DNA from: a virus
Length of the DNA: 17,442 nt
IMG/VR virus record: IMGVR_UViG_3300034159_000059
Strand: one strand, 5' to 3'
The translations under genes were made by a program, and so were the position numbers. Positions 3,673-13,260 of the stretch are shown here, piece after piece (position 1 is the first letter of the stretch; each line of letters begins with the position of its first letter). The notes below the pieces were generated by a model. That model did not search any database. It was not told the DNA's origin and saw nothing but the letters and a program-made list of their open reading frames with translations.

Positions 3673-3696
3673 GCACCTTTCCCGCATCTGGTTGAA

Positions 3697-3730
3697 AGAG
3701 GCGCTCGAAGTCTGAGCGCCTCTTTTCTTA
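3697..3730. terminator. intrinsic terminator (between convergent genes)
   Basis: AGAGGCGCTC-gaagtct-GAGCGCCTCT then TTTCTT; between convergent genes 3538..3672(+) and 3776..4081(-). Confidence 0.75.
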
Positions 3731-3775: not shown

Positions 3776-4081
3776 CTAACCCATCATCAGGGAGGAGCCA
3801 AGAGAGCAGCCAGTCTCTTCAGGGGATGGCTGCTCTTGTTCTCTGGCCAGTGTCAGAACGATCCCTCCCTCGGTAGAGACCGACTGGATCCTGACGTGAG
3901 GGGAACGAACCGCCTTGACGAGACGTTCCATCCGCTCGCGCACAAGAGAATCACTCTCCCCGATGTAGAACAGATCAGGTAGCTCGGTGGTTGAAGCCTT
4001 GTAGCGACCATCGGGCAGCCGCTCGACAGCAACAGTGAGATCCATTAGAGCCTCCAGAGATGTGTAAGGGTAAGAGGACAT
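3776..4081 (-). CDS. HicB-like antitoxin-fold protein (UPF0150/HicB N-terminal domain), no DNA-binding tail
   Basis: minus-strand gene inside a + strand array. The segment VAVERLPDGRYKASTTELPDLFYIGESDSLVRERMERLVKAV matches the HicB N-domain pattern (E-x-DGGY-x-A-x-x-PDLPG-x-x-x-G-x-T-x-EEA-x-x-N-x-x-EA). ATG at 4081; the track's TTG4099 is an alternative start. Confidence 0.5.
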   Translation of the reverse strand: MSSYPYTSLEALMDLTVAVERLPDGRYKASTTELPDLFYIGESDSLVRERMERLVKAVRSPHVRIQSVSTEGGIVLTLAREQEQPSPEETGCSLGSSLMMG

Positions 4082-4175
4082 CTCTCGGTCCCAAGTCAAC
4101 CCCCGATAACCGAAAGAGCCCCATCTTTCTTGTCTGGCATTCTCTCATTCCCAGAGGGGGAACTCTATATGGGTG

Positions 4176-4256
4176 CTAGGGCGGATAGGTGGGACGGCCC
4201 TTTTGCCTTAGAAAACACCTCTCACTTCTTGAGATAAGACGTTCAAGAGGAGCCAC
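4176..4256 (-). pseudogene. possible decayed hicA remnant
   Basis: minus-strand frame reads VAPLERLISRSERCFLRQKGRPTYPP*; RLISRSERCFLRQKG resembles the HicA core (ELIKxLEKxGWxLVRQKGSH) but stops about 30 aa early and has no proper ATG; sits where hicA would lie upstream of hicB. Confidence 0.2.
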
Positions 4257-4344
4257 GAGTGCTCCAACTGGTATAGAGACAATCTACCTACTCTTTAAGT
4301 GATAAGGTCTGGGACCGAAAAACCGGCCCAACTACCAGGAGCAG

Positions 4345-4611
4345 GTGATGCCCAACGCCGTCCTTCATAGTATCGCGGAGTCGGTGACCGATATCGACTC
4401 CGGCGAAAGAAAAAAGGCCCTCGATTCCGTAGACGAACAGTTTCGGACCCAGGCGGAGATGGAGCTGGATCGGCTCATAAATACTGGCATCACCAGAGTC
4501 GCCGACGCAGTGCGCTATGGAGAGTTCGAGAAAGCGACTGAGTTGGTGATCAGGTTGCGCAGAGAGGTGACGACGTACCATCCCTCCACTGCGAACACGA
4601 AGTCCTGCTAG
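4345..4611 (+). CDS. hypothetical protein (88 aa)
   Basis: AGGAGCAGG before ATG; GATAAG boxes at 4233 and 4301 upstream. Confidence 0.6.
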   Translation: MMPNAVLHSIAESVTDIDSGERKKALDSVDEQFRTQAEMELDRLINTGITRVADAVRYGEFEKATELVIRLRREVTTYHPSTANTKSC

Positions 4612-4653
4612 CACGTGGGGTATTCCCCATTCACAAGCAGCGTGCAGGTAGGC

Positions 4654-4696
4654 AGGAGGGGGCGGCGCCTTCTAGGCCGCAGCGCCCTCCTTTTTT
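4654..4696 (+). terminator. intrinsic terminator
   Basis: GC-rich imperfect hairpin GGAGGGGGCGGC...GCCGCAGCGCCCTCC followed by TTTTTT then AGCC. Confidence 0.65.
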
Positions 4697-4739: not shown

Positions 4740-4778
4740 AGTCCATGGAGATTCACCCCTAGTACAGTAGGAGAGAAC

Positions 4779-5261
4779 ATGACCGGACTGGAGAAGCTGA
4801 AGCTCTTCAAGGAGAAGTTTCTGCAACTCACTCGTCTGCAAGGGCGATCGGAGATCCCGTCGCAGATGAGAAAGCCGATCGAGGCTGCTCTGAAGGTGGT
4901 CACCAACCTTCAAATCGAAGCCCTCTTCCTGAAGCTGGGGGAGGCGAACTGGAGACCGAAGGAGACGATGGAAGGGACCCTCAACGGCGCCATGTTCTCG
5001 GTGGCCTATACGCTTGGGAACTTCATCGATCGCTACGTCGCCGCTTCTGCGGAAGTCGATCCATGGGTGAAGCAGGCTGCTCCCTTCTTCGAGGAGCTGA
5101 AGGCTGTGGCTACTAGCCTCTACAGCGCTTCCACGGAGCCTGGGCAGGAGATCGGGGTCTCTCCGGACGCCCCGTTGATGGAGCCGATCACCCGGGCGAG
5201 CTTCCCGGACATCGAAACAAACGCACTGGTTGGCGGTCTCATGACCGCATCCTCGAAGTAG
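4779..5261 (+). CDS. hypothetical protein (160 aa)
   Basis: GTAGGAGAGAAC before ATG; long ORF; no recognisable domain. Confidence 0.65.
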   Translation: MTGLEKLKLFKEKFLQLTRLQGRSEIPSQMRKPIEAALKVVTNLQIEALFLKLGEANWRPKETMEGTLNGAMFSVAYTLGNFIDRYVAASAEVDPWVKQAAPFFEELKAVATSLYSASTEPGQEIGVSPDAPLMEPITRASFPDIETNALVGGLMTASSK

Positions 5262-5287
5262 GGCTTCTCTCGCTCTGAGTAGAAGCC

Positions 5288-5578
5288 ATGAAATACCTGA
5301 TCGGCAGAGCAACAGTCCTTCTTCAAGGACTGATCTTTTCCAAGGTCGAGGTCATGGCAGTTTCAGAGGACGAGCAGGGAGTGGTCTTCTTCGAGTACCG
5401 AGGAGACCTCATTCTGCTCGTTCCTCCAGAGTCTCGACCGCTCTTGATTGAAGGGTTCCCGTTCGAGACGAAGGTGGGAACTCTCCAACTCACCCCGTCC
5501 GCTCCTATGAGCGTTGCAGCACTGGCAGAGACTGGAAAGGTCGTAGCTCAACTCGTCTTCGGCAGGAGTACTACATGA
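5288..5578 (+). CDS. hypothetical protein (96 aa)
   Basis: ORF ending in ATGA overlap with next gene; weak SD at 5288, alternative start ATG5354 has an AAGGTCGAGG box. Confidence 0.45.
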   Translation: MKYLIGRATVLLQGLIFSKVEVMAVSEDEQGVVFFEYRGDLILLVPPESRPLLIEGFPFETKVGTLQLTPSAPMSVAALAETGKVVAQLVFGRSTT

Positions 5579-6018
5579 GGTCTTCTAAACTCACGACCGC
5601 GAACGTCGAAACCGTCTTCCAGAAGTGCCTCTTCCCCAAGGACCGGGCGGACTTCGACCACGCCATCGTGGTGGACGGCACGCAGGAGTGCTTCGCCTTC
5701 GAGGTGGAGAAGATCCAGGAGAACCGGGACCAGATTCACTCCATGCTCTCGGAGCTTCCGGAGTCGTTCATCGAAGGCGTCGGGGAAGGCGGGAGCTTCT
5801 TCCTGGCCGGCTTCGACCGGTACGGGAATGAGTGGGCGGCCCACCACGGGGAGATGGAGAAGCTGTTCGCGCTCGGCAAGGCGTCTGGAGACATCGAGGT
5901 GATCGTCGAGGATGGAGTCGGAGGTCTTCCCATCTTCCTGGTGACGATGGACTCGACCGAGAAGCTGGTTGGGAAGGGGTCTCACGCCTTCCACGAGCTG
6001 CGAGAAATTGGGGCCTAA
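5575..6018 (+). CDS. hypothetical protein (147 aa)
   Basis: ATG5575 overlaps the previous stop (ATGA); AGGAG 8 nt upstream; acidic protein. Confidence 0.65.
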   Translation: MRSSKLTTANVETVFQKCLFPKDRADFDHAIVVDGTQECFAFEVEKIQENRDQIHSMLSELPESFIEGVGEGGSFFLAGFDRYGNEWAAHHGEMEKLFALGKASGDIEVIVEDGVGGLPIFLVTMDSTEKLVGKGSHAFHELREIGA

Positions 6019-6020
6019 CG

Positions 6021-6048
6021 GCTCCGGGGCGGATTTCCGCCCCTCTTA
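6021..6048 (+). terminator. intrinsic terminator
   Basis: GGGGCGG-attt-CCGCCCC then TCTTAGCCC, 3 nt after stop. Confidence 0.55.
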
Positions 6049-6058
6049 GCCCAAGATC

Positions 6059-6087
6059 GGCAAATGCACTGAGGGTGCAGTCATAAG
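6059..6087 (+). promoter_or_regulatory. promoter-like element GGCAAA-N17-CATAAG
   Basis: bipartite motif, 22 nt upstream of ATG6110. Confidence 0.3.
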
Positions 6088-6109
6088 GGCTACGGAGGAA
6101 ACATACACC

Positions 6110-6334
6110 ATGGAACCAGCACGACTTCAGGCTTTGAAGAAGGACGCTGAAAGTCGGGGGCCGAATCAAGTAATCATTCTTCCCCCGCCCGAAGTCCTGG
6201 AACTGGTGGTGGAGCTGGAGATGTGGAGGCTTTGGGGTACTCGTATCGCGGCCATCGCGGGCGAGATGCCGAAGGAAGTCTCCATGGATTCGAAGGCTTC
6301 TGACAATCAGTCCCAGGCGATCGATCAGCAATGA
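6110..6334 (+). CDS. hypothetical protein (74 aa)
   Basis: GGAGG 11 nt upstream; small acidic protein. Confidence 0.5.
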   Translation: MEPARLQALKKDAESRGPNQVIILPPPEVLELVVELEMWRLWGTRIAAIAGEMPKEVSMDSKASDNQSQAIDQQ

Positions 6335-6410
6335 TAGCAGCACTGGGAATACCCAAGTACGTGGGACGTAGACTAGTCTCATCAAGAACTGGTAATTGAG
6401 GGAGAGGGAT

Positions 6411-6686
6411 ATGAATCCAGAACTTCAGAAGATACTACGCTACTTCCTGGAGCTTCGAGACGAGAGTCTCAAGATCATCAACGACCTCAAGATCCCCGAG
6501 GTAGACAAGGCGCAGCACAGAATCGAACTGAACAGCAGTTACTACACTCGGTGCTCCGTCATCTTGTGGACGCTGGCTCACAGCTCGCCCATCGATCCCT
6601 CGATCATCGAGGAAACTACGCGGCCTATTCAGGCCAAGAGAGACCAGCTCCGTCACATGACAGAGCTTTCACAAGTGAGTCTGTAG
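6411..6686 (+). CDS. hypothetical protein (91 aa)
   Basis: GGGAGAGGG immediately before ATG6411 (in frame with the track's 6396 start). Confidence 0.55.
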   Translation: MNPELQKILRYFLELRDESLKIINDLKIPEVDKAQHRIELNSSYYTRCSVILWTLAHSSPIDPSIIEETTRPIQAKRDQLRHMTELSQVSL

Positions 6687-6692
6687 CAAGAA

Positions 6693-6727
6693 GAGGGTGC
6701 TGGGGACCTCCCCAGCACCCTCTTTCC
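6693..6727 (+). terminator. intrinsic terminator
   Basis: perfect 14-bp stem GAGGGTGCTGGGGA-cc-TCCCCAGCACCCTC followed by TTTCC. Confidence 0.8.
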
Positions 6728-6744
6728 ACAATGGGAGGACTATC

Positions 6745-7602
6745 ATGGCTACTCAGCAGACGGCTCCGGTTTCTCTACGAGGCAGGATTGCAGTCGTGGC
6801 TCCGACGTTTCTGTCTACGTTCCAGAATCGTATGGCTGCGCTTCTCAATGAGGAGAAGAATCCGGAGCACGTGCTGACCATGGACTCCATCACCGACGAG
6901 GTGGATGTTCAGACCCGGTTCCTGATGCGTATTCTCGCCAGGAAGCCGGCACCTCTGGCTCTCATCACCGTCTCTGTCCGTCCCACGCCCGAGATGATTC
7001 GTGCGTTCAGGGAAGCCCAGATCCCGGTGGTGTTGATCGACGAGGAGGCACCGGGAGCGGCAACGGTTGCGGCCGACAACTTCGTGGGTGGGTATCTCGC
7101 AGGAAGCCACCTGGCGAAGCTCGGTCGAAAGAGCGTGGCGATCATCTCTGGACGGACCGACGTGGCTGGCGGGTACAACGCCAAGCAGAGGGTCGAGGGA
7201 TTCCGCTCGGCTCTCGTGAAACAAGGTCTTCACATTCCTGACGGTGGGAAGTTCGAGGTCGAGCACTACACCGACAAGGAAGGAGAAGATCTCTCAGTGA
7301 TTCTCGCTTCCAGCAAGAAGTTCGACGGCGTGTTCGTGGCCGCCGGAGATTCTTGCGCACGAGGCATTCTACGAGGGGTTCGACGCGCAGGCGTGAACGT
7401 TCCCGATCAGATGGCGCTCGTCGGGTACGACGGCATGCTGGCCGCCGAAGTCTGCGCGGTACCTCTCACCACAGTGAAGCAACCCTTGCAGCAGATGGCT
7501 GCGGCTGCGATCCGGCTGGCCATCGCCGACCGGATGGAGACGCTGACGCACCCCAAGAAGATGGTCTACAAGCCCGAACTCATCGTGAGACGGTCAGCCT
7601 AG
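6745..7602 (+). CDS. LacI/GalR-family ligand-binding (PBP type-1) core domain protein lacking the HTH DNA-binding domain
   Basis: GGGAGG 6 nt before ATG6745. The C-terminal stretch DGVFVAAGDSCARGILRGVRRAGVNVPDQMALVGYDGMLAAEVCAVPLTTVKQPLQQMAAAAIRL aligns to the LacI core ([48 protein letters not shown]). The N-terminus RIAVVAPTFLSTFQNRMAALL aligns to the first strand/helix of the LacI core at about residue 60. No helix-turn-helix is encoded in this ORF or upstream of it. Confidence 0.75.
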   Translation: MATQQTAPVSLRGRIAVVAPTFLSTFQNRMAALLNEEKNPEHVLTMDSITDEVDVQTRFLMRILARKPAPLALITVSVRPTPEMIRAFREAQIPVVLIDEEAPGAATVAADNFVGGYLAGSHLAKLGRKSVAIISGRTDVAGGYNAKQRVEGFRSALVKQGLHIPDGGKFEVEHYTDKEGEDLSVILASSKKFDGVFVAAGDSCARGILRGVRRAGVNVPDQMALVGYDGMLAAEVCAVPLTTVKQPLQQMAAAAIRLAIADRMETLTHPKKMVYKPELIVRRSA

Positions 7603-7632
7603 TAGGTGGACGGTCCTCCCCGTCCGAAACAG

Positions 7633-7673
7633 AAGGGCCCGAGGCTACGACGCTCGGGCCCTTCGCTTTTTCA
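7633..7673 (+). terminator. intrinsic terminator
   Basis: perfect 12-bp stem GAAGGGCCCGAG-gctacgacg-CTCGGGCCCTTC followed by GCTTTTTC. Confidence 0.85.
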
Positions 7674-7705: not shown

Positions 7706-8806
7706 ATGATCACGGTATCGTACAAGCCCCTAGCTGCTGGCGAAGACCCGTGGGGACGGGTCATCGAGTCATTCATCGCCGGAGAGTTTCCGCAGGCTCA
7801 CAAGCACACGGAGAGCCGTCTCGACGCTGTCATGGAGGCCTTCCTGTCGACGAGGCAGCGTCGGTTGGGCCCCGTGCCTGGCGTGGAAGCACAGGCTGAG
7901 ATGCGGAAGGTCATCCGGCACTACATCGAGGCGAAGCTTCCCATTCCCGTCCTGATCCCCTTCGGCCCGAAGAAGCCCAAGGAGAGTGAGGGCATCGACG
8001 TCGCCGAGTTGGCGGCGTTGAAGGCTCTCGGATGTCTTCAGCGATCTGTCGTTCCGCACCACGAACCGGGGATGCACTTCCTGTTTCGCATGGAAGACCT
8101 TACCGGAAGGGTTCTGGAAGAGGGAACATCCGGTCTCTGGTCCGACATGTTCACGTACTGTCGGGACTTCAACCAACTCTCCGTGATCCTTGGGTACTCG
8201 GAGTTCATCGAAGTCGTGAAGGAGTCGGAACTCGGAAACCAGGACACCTTCTGGGCCGAGATGGCGAAGGCGCAGTCTGTTATGGAGACGTACCTGACGG
8301 AGAGTTGGAACTCTGAGTCTCCGGCCGACTGCGCGTCCTACCAGCCGCTCAAGGAGCTGGGGTTTGTCGGCATGGTGTCCCCCGCGCAGCGCGAGTTCTA
8401 CATGGACCGATACTCTCGGCTCTACCCGACACTCACAACGGACCAGCGCGTCACGCTGCTCGCGAAGTACCTCGCCTGCTCGCTCGTCCGTCGTAACCTC
8501 GGTATGACGGGAGCCAAGAAGGAGTGGGGCGGTCGCTGCCTGAGCCTGTCGTTCGCTCCACCGGCTCCGGACCAGGCCAACACTGCTGCGGCGAGGATCT
8601 ACTACCGAACGATCCCGCTCGACCACTCGAAGATCCACATGCCTCCGTGGCGCGCGAAAGGGATCTTGAAGTGCTCGGATGACAAGGTCCGATTCTCCAT
8701 GATCCCCTGGCAGGAGGTCGAGGCCGCGAATCTGTCTCCGGGGATGCTCATCGTGCAGTCGGGGAAGGATTGGGTTCCGGTGCGGGCGGACTACTTGCTG
8801 GAGTGA
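7706..8806 (+). CDS. hypothetical 366-aa protein; tentative resemblance to DIT1/PvcA (isonitrile synthase) family
   Basis: GAGGGAGAG before ATG7706; the largest ORF in the window. Local motifs PIPVLIPFGPKKPKES, PGMHFLFRMEDLTGRV and LSLSFAPPAPDQ...IHMPPWRAKG recall motifs I remember (possibly imperfectly) for IsnA/PvcA-type proteins, roughly (LPAFPAKSPN, PG..ICSDGRVF, RLSIHPQP...WLTPWHG). The match is recollection-based, not a search. Confidence 0.6.
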   Translation: MITVSYKPLAAGEDPWGRVIESFIAGEFPQAHKHTESRLDAVMEAFLSTRQRRLGPVPGVEAQAEMRKVIRHYIEAKLPIPVLIPFGPKKPKESEGIDVAELAALKALGCLQRSVVPHHEPGMHFLFRMEDLTGRVLEEGTSGLWSDMFTYCRDFNQLSVILGYSEFIEVVKESELGNQDTFWAEMAKAQSVMETYLTESWNSESPADCASYQPLKELGFVGMVSPAQREFYMDRYSRLYPTLTTDQRVTLLAKYLACSLVRRNLGMTGAKKEWGGRCLSLSFAPPAPDQANTAAARIYYRTIPLDHSKIHMPPWRAKGILKCSDDKVRFSMIPWQEVEAANLSPGMLIVQSGKDWVPVRADYLLE

Positions 8807-8827
8807 AACACAACGAGGAGAGAAGCC

Positions 8828-9271
8828 ATGGGTTGGGTTCCAAGCAAGGTGAAACTCTTGAAGGGGACTGAGAGAGTGTTGGTGAGAACTCTCCAGACGA
8901 CCACCAAGATGCAGCTCACGAAGGTCGAGGCAGTGGAGGACACGGGGCCGTTGGGAGACGTGGAGAGAAGGATCCGGCTCTGTCCGGACGTGGGGTATCC
9001 GGTCGTCCTGAAGGCGGAAGAGGAGATCTGGATCTTTCAGAGAGAGCAAGAGCCGAAGCCCGATACGGACCTCAAGGTAGGCGATGTGGTCCAGTTCACC
9101 AAGGAAGGAAAGGTGGAGGTCACCAAAACCAAAGAGAGGTCGGCCTACCAACTCGGTTGGGATGCTGGAATCGAGGCCGTCGAGAAGAGGGTCCTCGCCG
9201 CATCCATCACAGATGCCGTAGCCGTTCCGTGGTTGAAGAAGGTCTTCGCGGAGCTGAAAGAGCAAGGCTGA
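8828..9271 (+). CDS. hypothetical protein (147 aa)
   Basis: AGGAGAG 6 nt before ATG, 21 nt after previous stop (same operon); Lys/Glu/Val-rich, beta-rich look. Confidence 0.65.
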   Translation: MGWVPSKVKLLKGTERVLVRTLQTTTKMQLTKVEAVEDTGPLGDVERRIRLCPDVGYPVVLKAEEEIWIFQREQEPKPDTDLKVGDVVQFTKEGKVEVTKTKERSAYQLGWDAGIEAVEKRVLAASITDAVAVPWLKKVFAELKEQG

Positions 9272-9274
9272 GAA

Positions 9275-9306
9275 CATGGGCCCGGGAAACCGGGCCCATG
9301 TCTATT
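9275..9306. terminator. intrinsic terminator (between convergent genes)
   Basis: perfect 11-bp stem CATGGGCCCGG-GAAA-CCGGGCCCATG (GNRA-type loop) 3 nt after stop 9271; also lies 9 nt past the end of minus-strand gene 9315..9548. Confidence 0.75.
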
Positions 9307-12633: not shown

Positions 12634-12643
12634 GCTGGTAGGA

Positions 12644-12678
12644 GAAGACGAGGGCTCTCTCCAGCCTCGTCTTTTCTT
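12644..12678 (+). terminator. intrinsic terminator
   Basis: AAGACGAGGGCT-ctctcc-AGCCTCGTCTT then TTCTTAGCCC. Confidence 0.7.
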
Positions 12679-13260
12679 AGCCCTAAAGCAGGCCGGCTCC
12701 TACGTACCCCCGAAAATTCTGGCCTGACACCCCTCCCCGGTCCCGTTCCCTGTTGCACCCCCCCACCCCCTTCTAAATCCCCCCCGAATCTATGGTACCA
12801 CTGTCCCCCTCCCTACCCCCTCCCTCTCAAGTTCTACTAGCTCATCAGCCAGGCGAGGTGGCGAGGGATGACTTCATGTCCTGTTGCTGCGCTTGCGGCC
12901 ATGAGAGACGCGCGCAGGGCCAGGCAAGAAGTACCCTCGATGCTTGAGCTGCCCTCTCCCGACTAGACGGCGGAGCTAACACAGAGGGATACCCTCCGGG
13001 CTAGTCCTACTCCTCGGCTCGTGCCTATGGCGCTGGAGCTGCTGCGCTGGCGATGCCATAGCACTTCCCCTGCTCCTTCCTCTCTCTATCTCCTGTCACA
13101 TGAGTGTCTCTCGAAGGACCATCATGGCCACCTAGTCGCGCCGACATGCTAAGGAGGCAAGTCTGAAATCGGATAACGCGCTGACGGCAGATACACAGAC
13201 TCGCGTGTCATAAGAACGTGGGTTGGGAAGTACACATGCTAACGCCTAAAGGGAGAACGC
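12679..13260. other. about 580-bp ORF-free region, strongly C-rich on + strand
   Basis: no ORF of 60 aa or more on either strand. 12720-12835 is a polypyrimidine/C-run tract including the tandem CCCCCTCCCTA/CCCCCTCCCTC. Imperfect inverted repeat at 13025-13062. Ends in a GGCAGA-N17-CATAAG promoter-like box. Confidence 0.6.
13186..13214 (+). promoter_or_regulatory. promoter-like element GGCAGA-N17-CATAAG
   Basis: bipartite motif, 46 nt upstream of ATG13261. Confidence 0.3.

Follow-up and report, generated by a model that had tools for sequence, protein, structure and literature searches.

A phage gene for a LacI/RbsR-type effector-binding core without a helix-turn-helix, and the HTH-free clade to which it belongs

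We have analysed a stretch of viral DNA of 17,442 nt (IMG/VR record IMGVR_UViG_3300034159_000059, here called the window) that carries a gene for the effector-binding core of a LacI-type regulator; the helix-turn-helix (HTH) with which such regulators read DNA is not encoded. The open reading frame (ORF) of this gene, called the core gene below, runs on the plus strand from an ATG at 6745 to a TAG at 7600-7602 and specifies a protein of 285 amino acids (aa), the window protein. The gene and the elements immediately around it are as follows.

6745..7602, plus strand: coding sequence for a LacI/RbsR/PurR-type effector-binding core, 285 aa, with no HTH, no signal peptide and a type-I periplasmic-binding-protein fold
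6733..6739, plus strand: Shine-Dalgarno sequence GGGAGGA, six bases 5′ of the ATG, as read from the sequence
6691..6724, plus strand: upstream stem-loop with a perfect 16-bp stem, followed by UUCCAC (region −38.1 kcal/mol, z = −5.2)
7632..7671, plus strand: downstream stem-loop with a 12-bp G+C-rich stem (7632-7643 pairs with 7653-7664), followed by GCUUUUU

The start codon is the same in the Logan gene call, which gives an identical 285-aa protein, and in L088, a 2.7-kb contig from a related phage whose core protein is 71% identical and in which the block TTCCACRATGGGAGGAC is kept together with the ATG. A longer reading from a GTG at 6697 was rejected, as this codon lies inside the upstream hairpin and has no ribosome-binding site. 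The JGI gene call begins at the internal Met30 and yields a protein of 256 aa.

In a Pfam search the window protein was matched by Peripla_BP_3 (2.4e-22), Peripla_BP_4 (3.1e-17) and Peripla_BP_1 (1e-10), and HTH_LacI (PF00356) was not matched, which is the outcome that a sequence-only reading of this DNA had predicted. The three motifs quoted in that reading, PLTTV, VGYDG and GDSCARG, are all present in the translation (within VPLTTVKQ, LVGYDG and AAGDSCARG). The best NCBIfam matches are LacI-family repressors, with RbsR first (6.6e-34, profile positions 63-327 of 331) and PurR, GntR, CytR and GalR next. Since the RbsR profile is aligned from position 63, just past the hinge, the protein does begin where the hinge would end, as had been proposed. 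A search of PDB with a profile made from the window protein and its 15 nearest relatives placed PurR residues 58-329 at the top (2e-45). The AlphaFold model has high confidence (predicted local distance difference test, pLDDT, 90.6; predicted template-modelling score, pTM, 0.86), with strand 1 beginning at residue 14 and disorder confined to residues 1-7, and in Foldseek it superposes on ribose-bound RbsR, on PurR and on a reconstructed LacI ancestor with template-modelling (TM) scores of 0.8-0.86.

The missing HTH was sought in the DNA itself with a LacI-HTH hidden Markov model (HMM) built from 15 HTH-bearing proteins that had been matched in our search. Over all six frames of the window this model found nothing (best E = 1.5); as a positive control, it gave 83-103 bits on four HTH-bearing relatives outside the training set. 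The ORF lying upstream of the core gene (6396-6686) has no Pfam match and no PHROG match. Pfam, NCBIfam and the six-frame HMM scan therefore confirm the earlier claim of a stand-alone LacI-type core without an HTH.

The fact that Peripla_BP_4 and RbsB profiles also match could suggest an ATP-binding cassette (ABC) transporter solute-binding protein, or else a complete LacI protein with its HTH in another frame or missing through an assembly error. RbsB and MglB have the same fold and a similar sugar-binding geometry, and they too are binding proteins without a DNA-binding domain. They differ in being exported and in docking on a transporter or chemoreceptor, whereas the N-terminus of the window protein, MATQQTAPVSLRGR, passes directly into strand 1 with no signal peptide and no lipobox, and no transporter domain was found within 37 kb of the contig, where the neighbours are ORFans. 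The match to the RbsB profile, which describes the ribose-binding protein of an ABC transporter, is also far weaker (only 4e-11, versus 6.6e-34 for RbsR). As to assembly error, no HTH is encoded in any frame, the Logan assembly and L088 have the same start and an identical protein was found by protein search on a JGI contig of 209 kb. We give these explanations a negligible probability. None of the three observations that the sequence-only reading had named as speaking against it (an HTH detected by profile, a frameshifted upstream HTH, a better match to an ABC solute-binding protein) was made.

The window protein is thus a genuine stand-alone core of LacI type that lacks both an HTH and an export signal. 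With the LacI/GalR repressors RbsR, PurR and CcpA it shares the two-lobed type-I periplasmic-binding-protein fold (TM 0.8-0.86), the motifs R..GF, GYDD and LTT.KQP, and pocket positions equivalent to R197, D274, D149, W220 and Q291 of LacI. It differs from them in having neither the HTH_LacI domain nor the hinge helix and in starting ∼13 residues before strand 1; therefore operator reading and stand-alone repression are impossible. In the functional sense the protein is not a member of the LacI transcription factors, since the search for the HTH that defines them was negative.

The same architecture is found in all close relatives. In a set of 5.8 billion proteins, the 16 that come nearest to the window protein (34-71% identity) have lengths of 269-283 aa and no PF00356 domain, and HTH-bearing LacI proteins enter the list of nearest proteins only from ∼30% identity. 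An exhaustive profile search of 1.84 billion cluster representatives gave 3,438 matches at E ≤ 1e-30; those ranked highest, ∼32 clusters with 267-389 bits, consist of proteins of 257-289 aa with matches starting at residues 2-8, and below them come proteins of 332-343 aa with a canonical HTH (MSITIKDVAK..GVSHTTVS) at 240-270 bits. In a scan of one genome per species we detected 125 relatives, and 78 loci were retrieved; locus searches of this kind, being seeded with a pattern, miss members that lack the seed motif. The loci come from Ignavibacteriota, Bacteroidota, Gemmatimonadota, Anaeromyxobacter/Myxococcota, Bdellovibrionales, Spirochaetia, FCPU426 and Goldiibacteriota. In most of 83 loci the frame is closed by a stop less than 30 codons 5′ of the first aligned residue, and in the long upstream frames that occur in genomes of 70-75% G+C no HTH was found. 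Five loci (L080, L082-L085) are HTH-bearing sisters.

In a neighbour-joining tree of 222 cores, simple and rough as it is, the smallest clade to take in both the window protein and representatives of the bacterial copies comprises 106 leaves, none of them HTH-bearing, and 80 HTH-bearing proteins lie elsewhere in the tree. The clade itself is present in Ignavibacteriota, Bacteroidota, Gemmatimonadota, Myxococcota, Spirochaetia and FCPU426, often with many copies per genome: at least 10 in the metagenome-assembled genome (MAG) OH_CBB_164 and at least seven in one Anaeromyxobacter MAG (SMAG_U12088), with tandem arrays of two or three HTH-less cores in L016 (5569-8808), L017, L024, L025, L048 and L063. 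The window protein fits the clade in length (285 aa; members have ∼257-290 aa), in a start no more than ∼15 residues before strand 1 and in the motifs L-I-D-E-E, R-x-x-G-F, A-A-G-D, G-Y-D-D/G, L-T-T-x-K/R-Q-P and P-E-L-x-V-R-x-S; the signature motifs are invariant or nearly so in our alignments A1 and A6. The HTH-bearing sisters (P0148, P0152, P0155 and P0158) share the signature motifs, including PEL.IR.SA, and have the best clade-profile scores of any HTH-bearing proteins (240-270 bits). They differ in carrying the canonical N-terminal HTH (‘MSITIKDVAK..GVSHTTVS...’), in being 34% identical, the closest that any HTH-bearing protein found here comes to the window protein, and in having a less uniform pocket. 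No HTH-bearing copy was retrieved from Ignavibacteriota, the home of the closest bacterial relatives. The clade is probably a branch of the LacI family, shared by bacteria and phages, that lost its HTH long ago. Since all close relatives are HTH-less, the core gene is no accident of truncation.

Source annotations of members such as P0001, P0003, P0015 and P0290 read ‘DNA-binding LacI/PurR family transcriptional regulator’. For an HTH-less family the ‘DNA-binding’ label is wrong. Full-text searches of the literature gave no account of HTH-less LacI cores, either as a family or in phages. A paper on FixV was considered as a precedent and set aside, as FixV is a normal LacI/GalR regulator.

The ligand pocket was mapped by alignment to the residues that we take to be the inducer contacts of LacI. 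Conservation in the 106-member clade is as follows.

LacI D149, window D99: 95% conserved
LacI S193, window N145: 91% conserved
LacI R197, window R149: 100% conserved
LacI W220, window Y175: 95% conserved
LacI N246, window G201: 100% conserved
LacI D274, window D229: 100% conserved
LacI Q291, window Q246: 100% conserved

Window residue D202 is also listed among the conserved pocket residues. All seven positions are invariant in a subclade of 15 members that holds most of the phage copies, and in the 80 HTH-bearing relatives the positions D149, S193 and W220 vary (E61/D30, S27/N13 and Y45/F28, respectively). Such uniformity of the cleft, in phages as well as across phyla, argues that selection acts on the binding of a ligand, and of the same ligand in every member. 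The earlier proposal that the protein could bind a small molecule is in this respect well supported, as the pocket looks intact. Since repressors that bind ribose or purines are the top matches both by profile and by structure, our guess is that the ligand is a sugar or a sugar-like metabolite. Paralogues have multiplied within genomes despite the same ligand pocket in all copies.

Comparison of the core gene with its counterpart in L088 gave a ratio of non-synonymous to synonymous substitution rates (dN/dS) of 0.26 at dS 0.81; for the neighbouring gene, which encodes 366 aa, the ratio is 0.105. As judged from L088, both genes are under purifying selection, which is strong in the neighbour; the core gene is the faster-evolving of the two. 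If one looked at nothing but the missing HTH, the core gene could be a non-functional remnant of a LacI repressor whose 5′ end was lost on capture by the phage. This explanation has very little probability in view of the dN/dS value, the intact frame, the ribosome-binding site kept in L088, the same architecture in every close relative, the invariant pocket and the confident AlphaFold model. A decaying remnant, a frameshifted HTH and an ABC solute-binding protein are all excluded.

Another possibility, raised in the sequence-only reading, is that the window protein acts as a dominant-negative partner or co-sensor by forming mixed dimers with a host LacI-family repressor; such dimers would have a single DNA-reading head, and the regulon would be de-repressed or re-tuned. 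LacI-family cores dimerise through the domain that is kept here, and negative dominance of the classical lacI(-d) type is established. Some MAGs have both HTH-less and HTH-bearing genes. There is also indirect support from three Spirochaetia/FCPU426 loci, in which an HTH-less core lies directly upstream of an HTH-bearing sister on the same strand.

L082: HTH-less core at 4749-5597, HTH-bearing sister at 5797-6822
L083: HTH-less core at 12-881, HTH-bearing sister at 1023-2042
L084: HTH-less core at 3796-4668, HTH-bearing sister at 5809-6828

The paired cores of L082 are 43% identical. On the clade HMM, though, the HTH-less genes of these pairs score 236-248 bits versus 340-380 for clade members; they appear to represent a separate and more recent loss of the HTH outside the clade of the window protein. 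To that clade the nearest HTH-bearing protein is the one at 34% identity already mentioned, none was retrieved from Ignavibacteriota, and in ∼150 kb of phage DNA flanking the phage copies there is no LacI-type HTH gene. Nor did the gene arise by truncation of a host repressor; it belongs to an old clade without any HTH-bearing member. Close likeness to the oligomerisation domain of a target repressor, as expected of an anti-repressor, was not found among the relatives retrieved, the best value being 34%. Moreover, seven to at least 10 HTH-less copies per genome, some in tandem arrays, fit one-to-one antagonism poorly. Dimer interfaces of LacI/GalR proteins are reported to be sequence-variable and specific to each repressor (bioRxiv 10.1101/2025.04.02.646877), which also speaks against the heterodimer. 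Our results thus do not support a dominant-negative heterodimer, and we consider it unlikely.

A search for HTH-less cores in other phages, which had been suggested together with the heterodimer, found the core gene in five IMG/VR lineages, on contigs of 35-192 kb (L001/L006, L003/L004, L005, L007 and L090), one of which also has a terminase gene. These phages have the core gene alone in common with the phage of the window, plus a DUF7694 protein in L005. In the neighbour-joining tree the window, L088, L005, L006 and L007 fall into the 15-member subclade mentioned above, which contains none of the 71 copies from bacterial genomes; L003/L004 and L090 form a second phage lineage. Two further members of the subclade (P0010 and P0015) are on short contigs, where every other gene points the same way and lacks a Pfam match. 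The nearest bacterial relatives of the window protein, from Ignavibacteriota, are 46-48% identical, and the G+C content of the phage (57%) is unlike that of their genomes. In deposited genomes of cultured phages a tblastn search gave no match above 34% identity and no family member, many of the matches being to host-contaminated records. A library of viral protein structures holds one fragment annotated as a LacI/GalR-like sensor domain. A metagenome scan returned copies that are nearly all of bacterial type, and the phage subclade was not enlarged beyond L156.

The window belongs to a Logan contig of 109 kb. Over 37 kb around the core gene almost all genes are small, co-directional and without a family match; the exceptions on the contig are a GH108 endolysin, an Acb2/Tad1-hairpin protein, a Cro/CI-type HTH protein, Phage_phiTE_072, DUF7694, DUF6210, DUF4262 and a GGDEF protein. 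In the window itself, the only ORFs other than the core gene with a family match are those at 447-872, 943-1353 and 5575-6018 (DUF6210, DUF4262 with DUF4026_C, and phrog_26039), all families of unknown function. By its endolysin, phage-specific families and gene organisation, this DNA belongs to a large phage, of which it represents an accessory or early part. Genes for a terminase or a capsid were not found in the part of the contig that was covered, a megablast search with the whole window against deposited phage genomes gave no match, and a tRNA scan found none.

Outside the window, the same contig encodes a protein of Acb2/Tad1-hairpin type (L087, 2113-2334, minus strand) and one of GGDEF diguanylate-cyclase type (L086, 17252-18136, plus strand). 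The Acb2/Tad1-hairpin family comprises anti-CBASS/Thoeris sponges, and the two genes show that the element has other genes for small-molecule signalling or anti-signalling.

By analogy with Tad1, Tad2 and Acb2, the phage copy could soak up a ribose-containing immune signal, for example a nucleotide of Thoeris or CBASS type. These sponges are likewise accessory proteins of phages and do nothing but bind a small molecule; here, too, a binding domain without an output domain lies in a phage accessory region, an Acb2/Tad1-type gene is on the contig and ribose- and purine-binding repressors lead the matches by structure and by profile. Their folds, however, are unrelated to that of the window protein, which has abundant bacterial homologues with an identical pocket, in housekeeping contexts and in many copies, so that an ordinary metabolite is the more natural ligand. 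No link to defence was found: PADLOC gave no match, and the literature that we searched contains no description of a sponge with this fold. We hold an anti-defence sponge to be distinctly improbable.

Two further ORFs lie downstream of the core gene.

7706-8806, plus strand: ORFan of 366 aa, directly downstream of the core gene
7769-9277, minus strand: ORF of 502 aa, antisense to the plus-strand genes for the 366-aa and a 147-aa protein

The 366-aa ORFan was not matched in Pfam, PHROG, NCBIfam or PADLOC, and a set of 5.8 billion proteins contains only seven homologues. The AlphaFold model of this ORFan (pLDDT 70.7) is similar to two isonitrile synthases, PvcA and PIsnA (Foldseek E ∼1e-9, TM 0.43-0.52), and, more weakly, to the catalytic domains of TyrRS. 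L088 contains the same gene pair, with the 366-aa neighbour 90% identical. Homologues of the 366-aa gene occur on other ORFan-dense, phage-like contigs with no core gene adjacent; in L175-L177 the genes upstream of these homologues are not homologous, and no clean insertion site could be drawn. As the 366-aa gene is found elsewhere without the core gene, a functional coupling of the two was rejected, and the core gene is regarded as an independent accessory unit that forms no operon with its neighbour. The antisense ORF, with a codon-position G+C of 0.78/0.42/0.59 that is unlike that of the plus-strand genes, is probably a shadow ORF of a sequence with 57% G+C.

The core gene is bracketed by the two strongest short-range inverted repeats in the window, the upstream one being the longest perfect repeat of this kind, and L088 keeps both hairpins. 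In L088 the upstream hairpin has a 15-bp stem of another sequence at the same place and with the same geometry, which argues that pairing was preserved by compensatory changes; the downstream hairpin differs in the loop alone. The downstream hairpin probably serves as a terminator at the end of the cassette. The upstream one could terminate the preceding gene or act in RNA stability or processing 5′ of the cassette. It had been described as a strong terminator, which is an interpretation rather than an observation: only three U follow the hairpin, and a consensus terminator scan of the window did not call it because its U-run is short. The accompanying remark that expression would need read-through or antitermination is reasonable, as the 20 nt between the hairpin and the ATG leave no room for a promoter and transcripts must pass through the hairpin or be processed there; termination itself stays putative with so weak a U-tract. 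An Rfam search of the window gave no match. More intergenic stem-loops, perfect or near-perfect and of 12-15 bp, are present at 1998-2033, 3695-3725, 9274-9301 and 12639-12679; they punctuate the co-directional gene array, and among them the terminator scan called only a site at 12652-12667, inside the repeat at 12639-12679. The arrangement of the core gene resembles that of phage morons, being a single hairpin-bracketed gene between unrelated phage genes whose downstream neighbour occurs elsewhere without it. It differs from them in that no promoter of its own was detected and in the upstream hairpin lying so close to the ATG.

We favour, with a probability of about 0.6, the reading that the core gene is a functional phage accessory gene and that its product, a LacI/RbsR-type protein of one domain, binds a ligand in the cytoplasm and acts without DNA. 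The protein would bind one small polar ligand, the same in all members as the shared pocket suggests, in the cleft between its lobes. Its output would be independent of DNA binding: either the ligand is sequestered or buffered, or the ligand-closed form contacts another protein. By such means the phage may sense or manipulate a metabolite pool of the host during infection. The gene would be transcribed as a compact cassette between its two conserved hairpins, with transcription entering through the upstream one.

Several points weigh against this reading. The case for the pocket is built on homology with LacI; the LacI sequence used for the mapping has the expected residue at all 11 positions checked (73, 75, 76, 79, 149, 197, 220, 246, 274, 291 and 293). 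Variability at the positions that correspond to the dimer interface of LacI exceeds the average (entropy 2.37 versus 1.87), a figure that says nothing on oligomerisation. No sigma-70-like promoter was found near 6600-6745, where the promoter sought was the consensus type and that of the host may differ. The neighbour-joining tree that delimits the HTH-less clade has no support values. Finally, the bacterial neighbourhoods have no universal partner, with 81/83 Pfam families among the 71 upstream/68 downstream neighbours. Recurrent neighbours are minorities: S41 peptidase (five loci), DUF362/Fer4 (five loci), methyl-accepting chemotaxis proteins (four loci), hybrid histidine kinases (two to four loci), UPF0102 (three loci) and paralogous cores. 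A mechanism linked to chemotaxis proteins or histidine kinases was considered and dropped, as they occur at four and two to four loci of ∼70.

Among the explanations that we weighed, DNA-independent ligand binding ranks first, the heterodimer second and the anti-defence sponge third. A bolder and wider idea, which we offer as speculation of low probability, is that the HTH-less clade consists of unrecognised stand-alone cytoplasmic receptors for one conserved ligand, with many paralogues in bacteria, and that the lineage captured by phages serves as a sponge or decoy receptor that blinds or hijacks a signalling or metabolic checkpoint of the host, possibly against defence.

What is new here, and in our judgement real, is a conserved and probably old HTH-less derivative of a textbook family, with a phage-borne lineage. 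LacI-type proteins are the textbook case of a sensor fused to a DNA-reading head, and here a large, old and widespread branch of them has no head and retains the sensor pocket nearly unchanged across phyla. That several unrelated phages carry a lineage of their own suggests that the ligand, or the pathway on which it reports, matters during infection. As the window protein is small, soluble and confidently modelled, it is directly testable; the identity of its ligand would give the family a function and might reveal a new route by which phages reach into host physiology.

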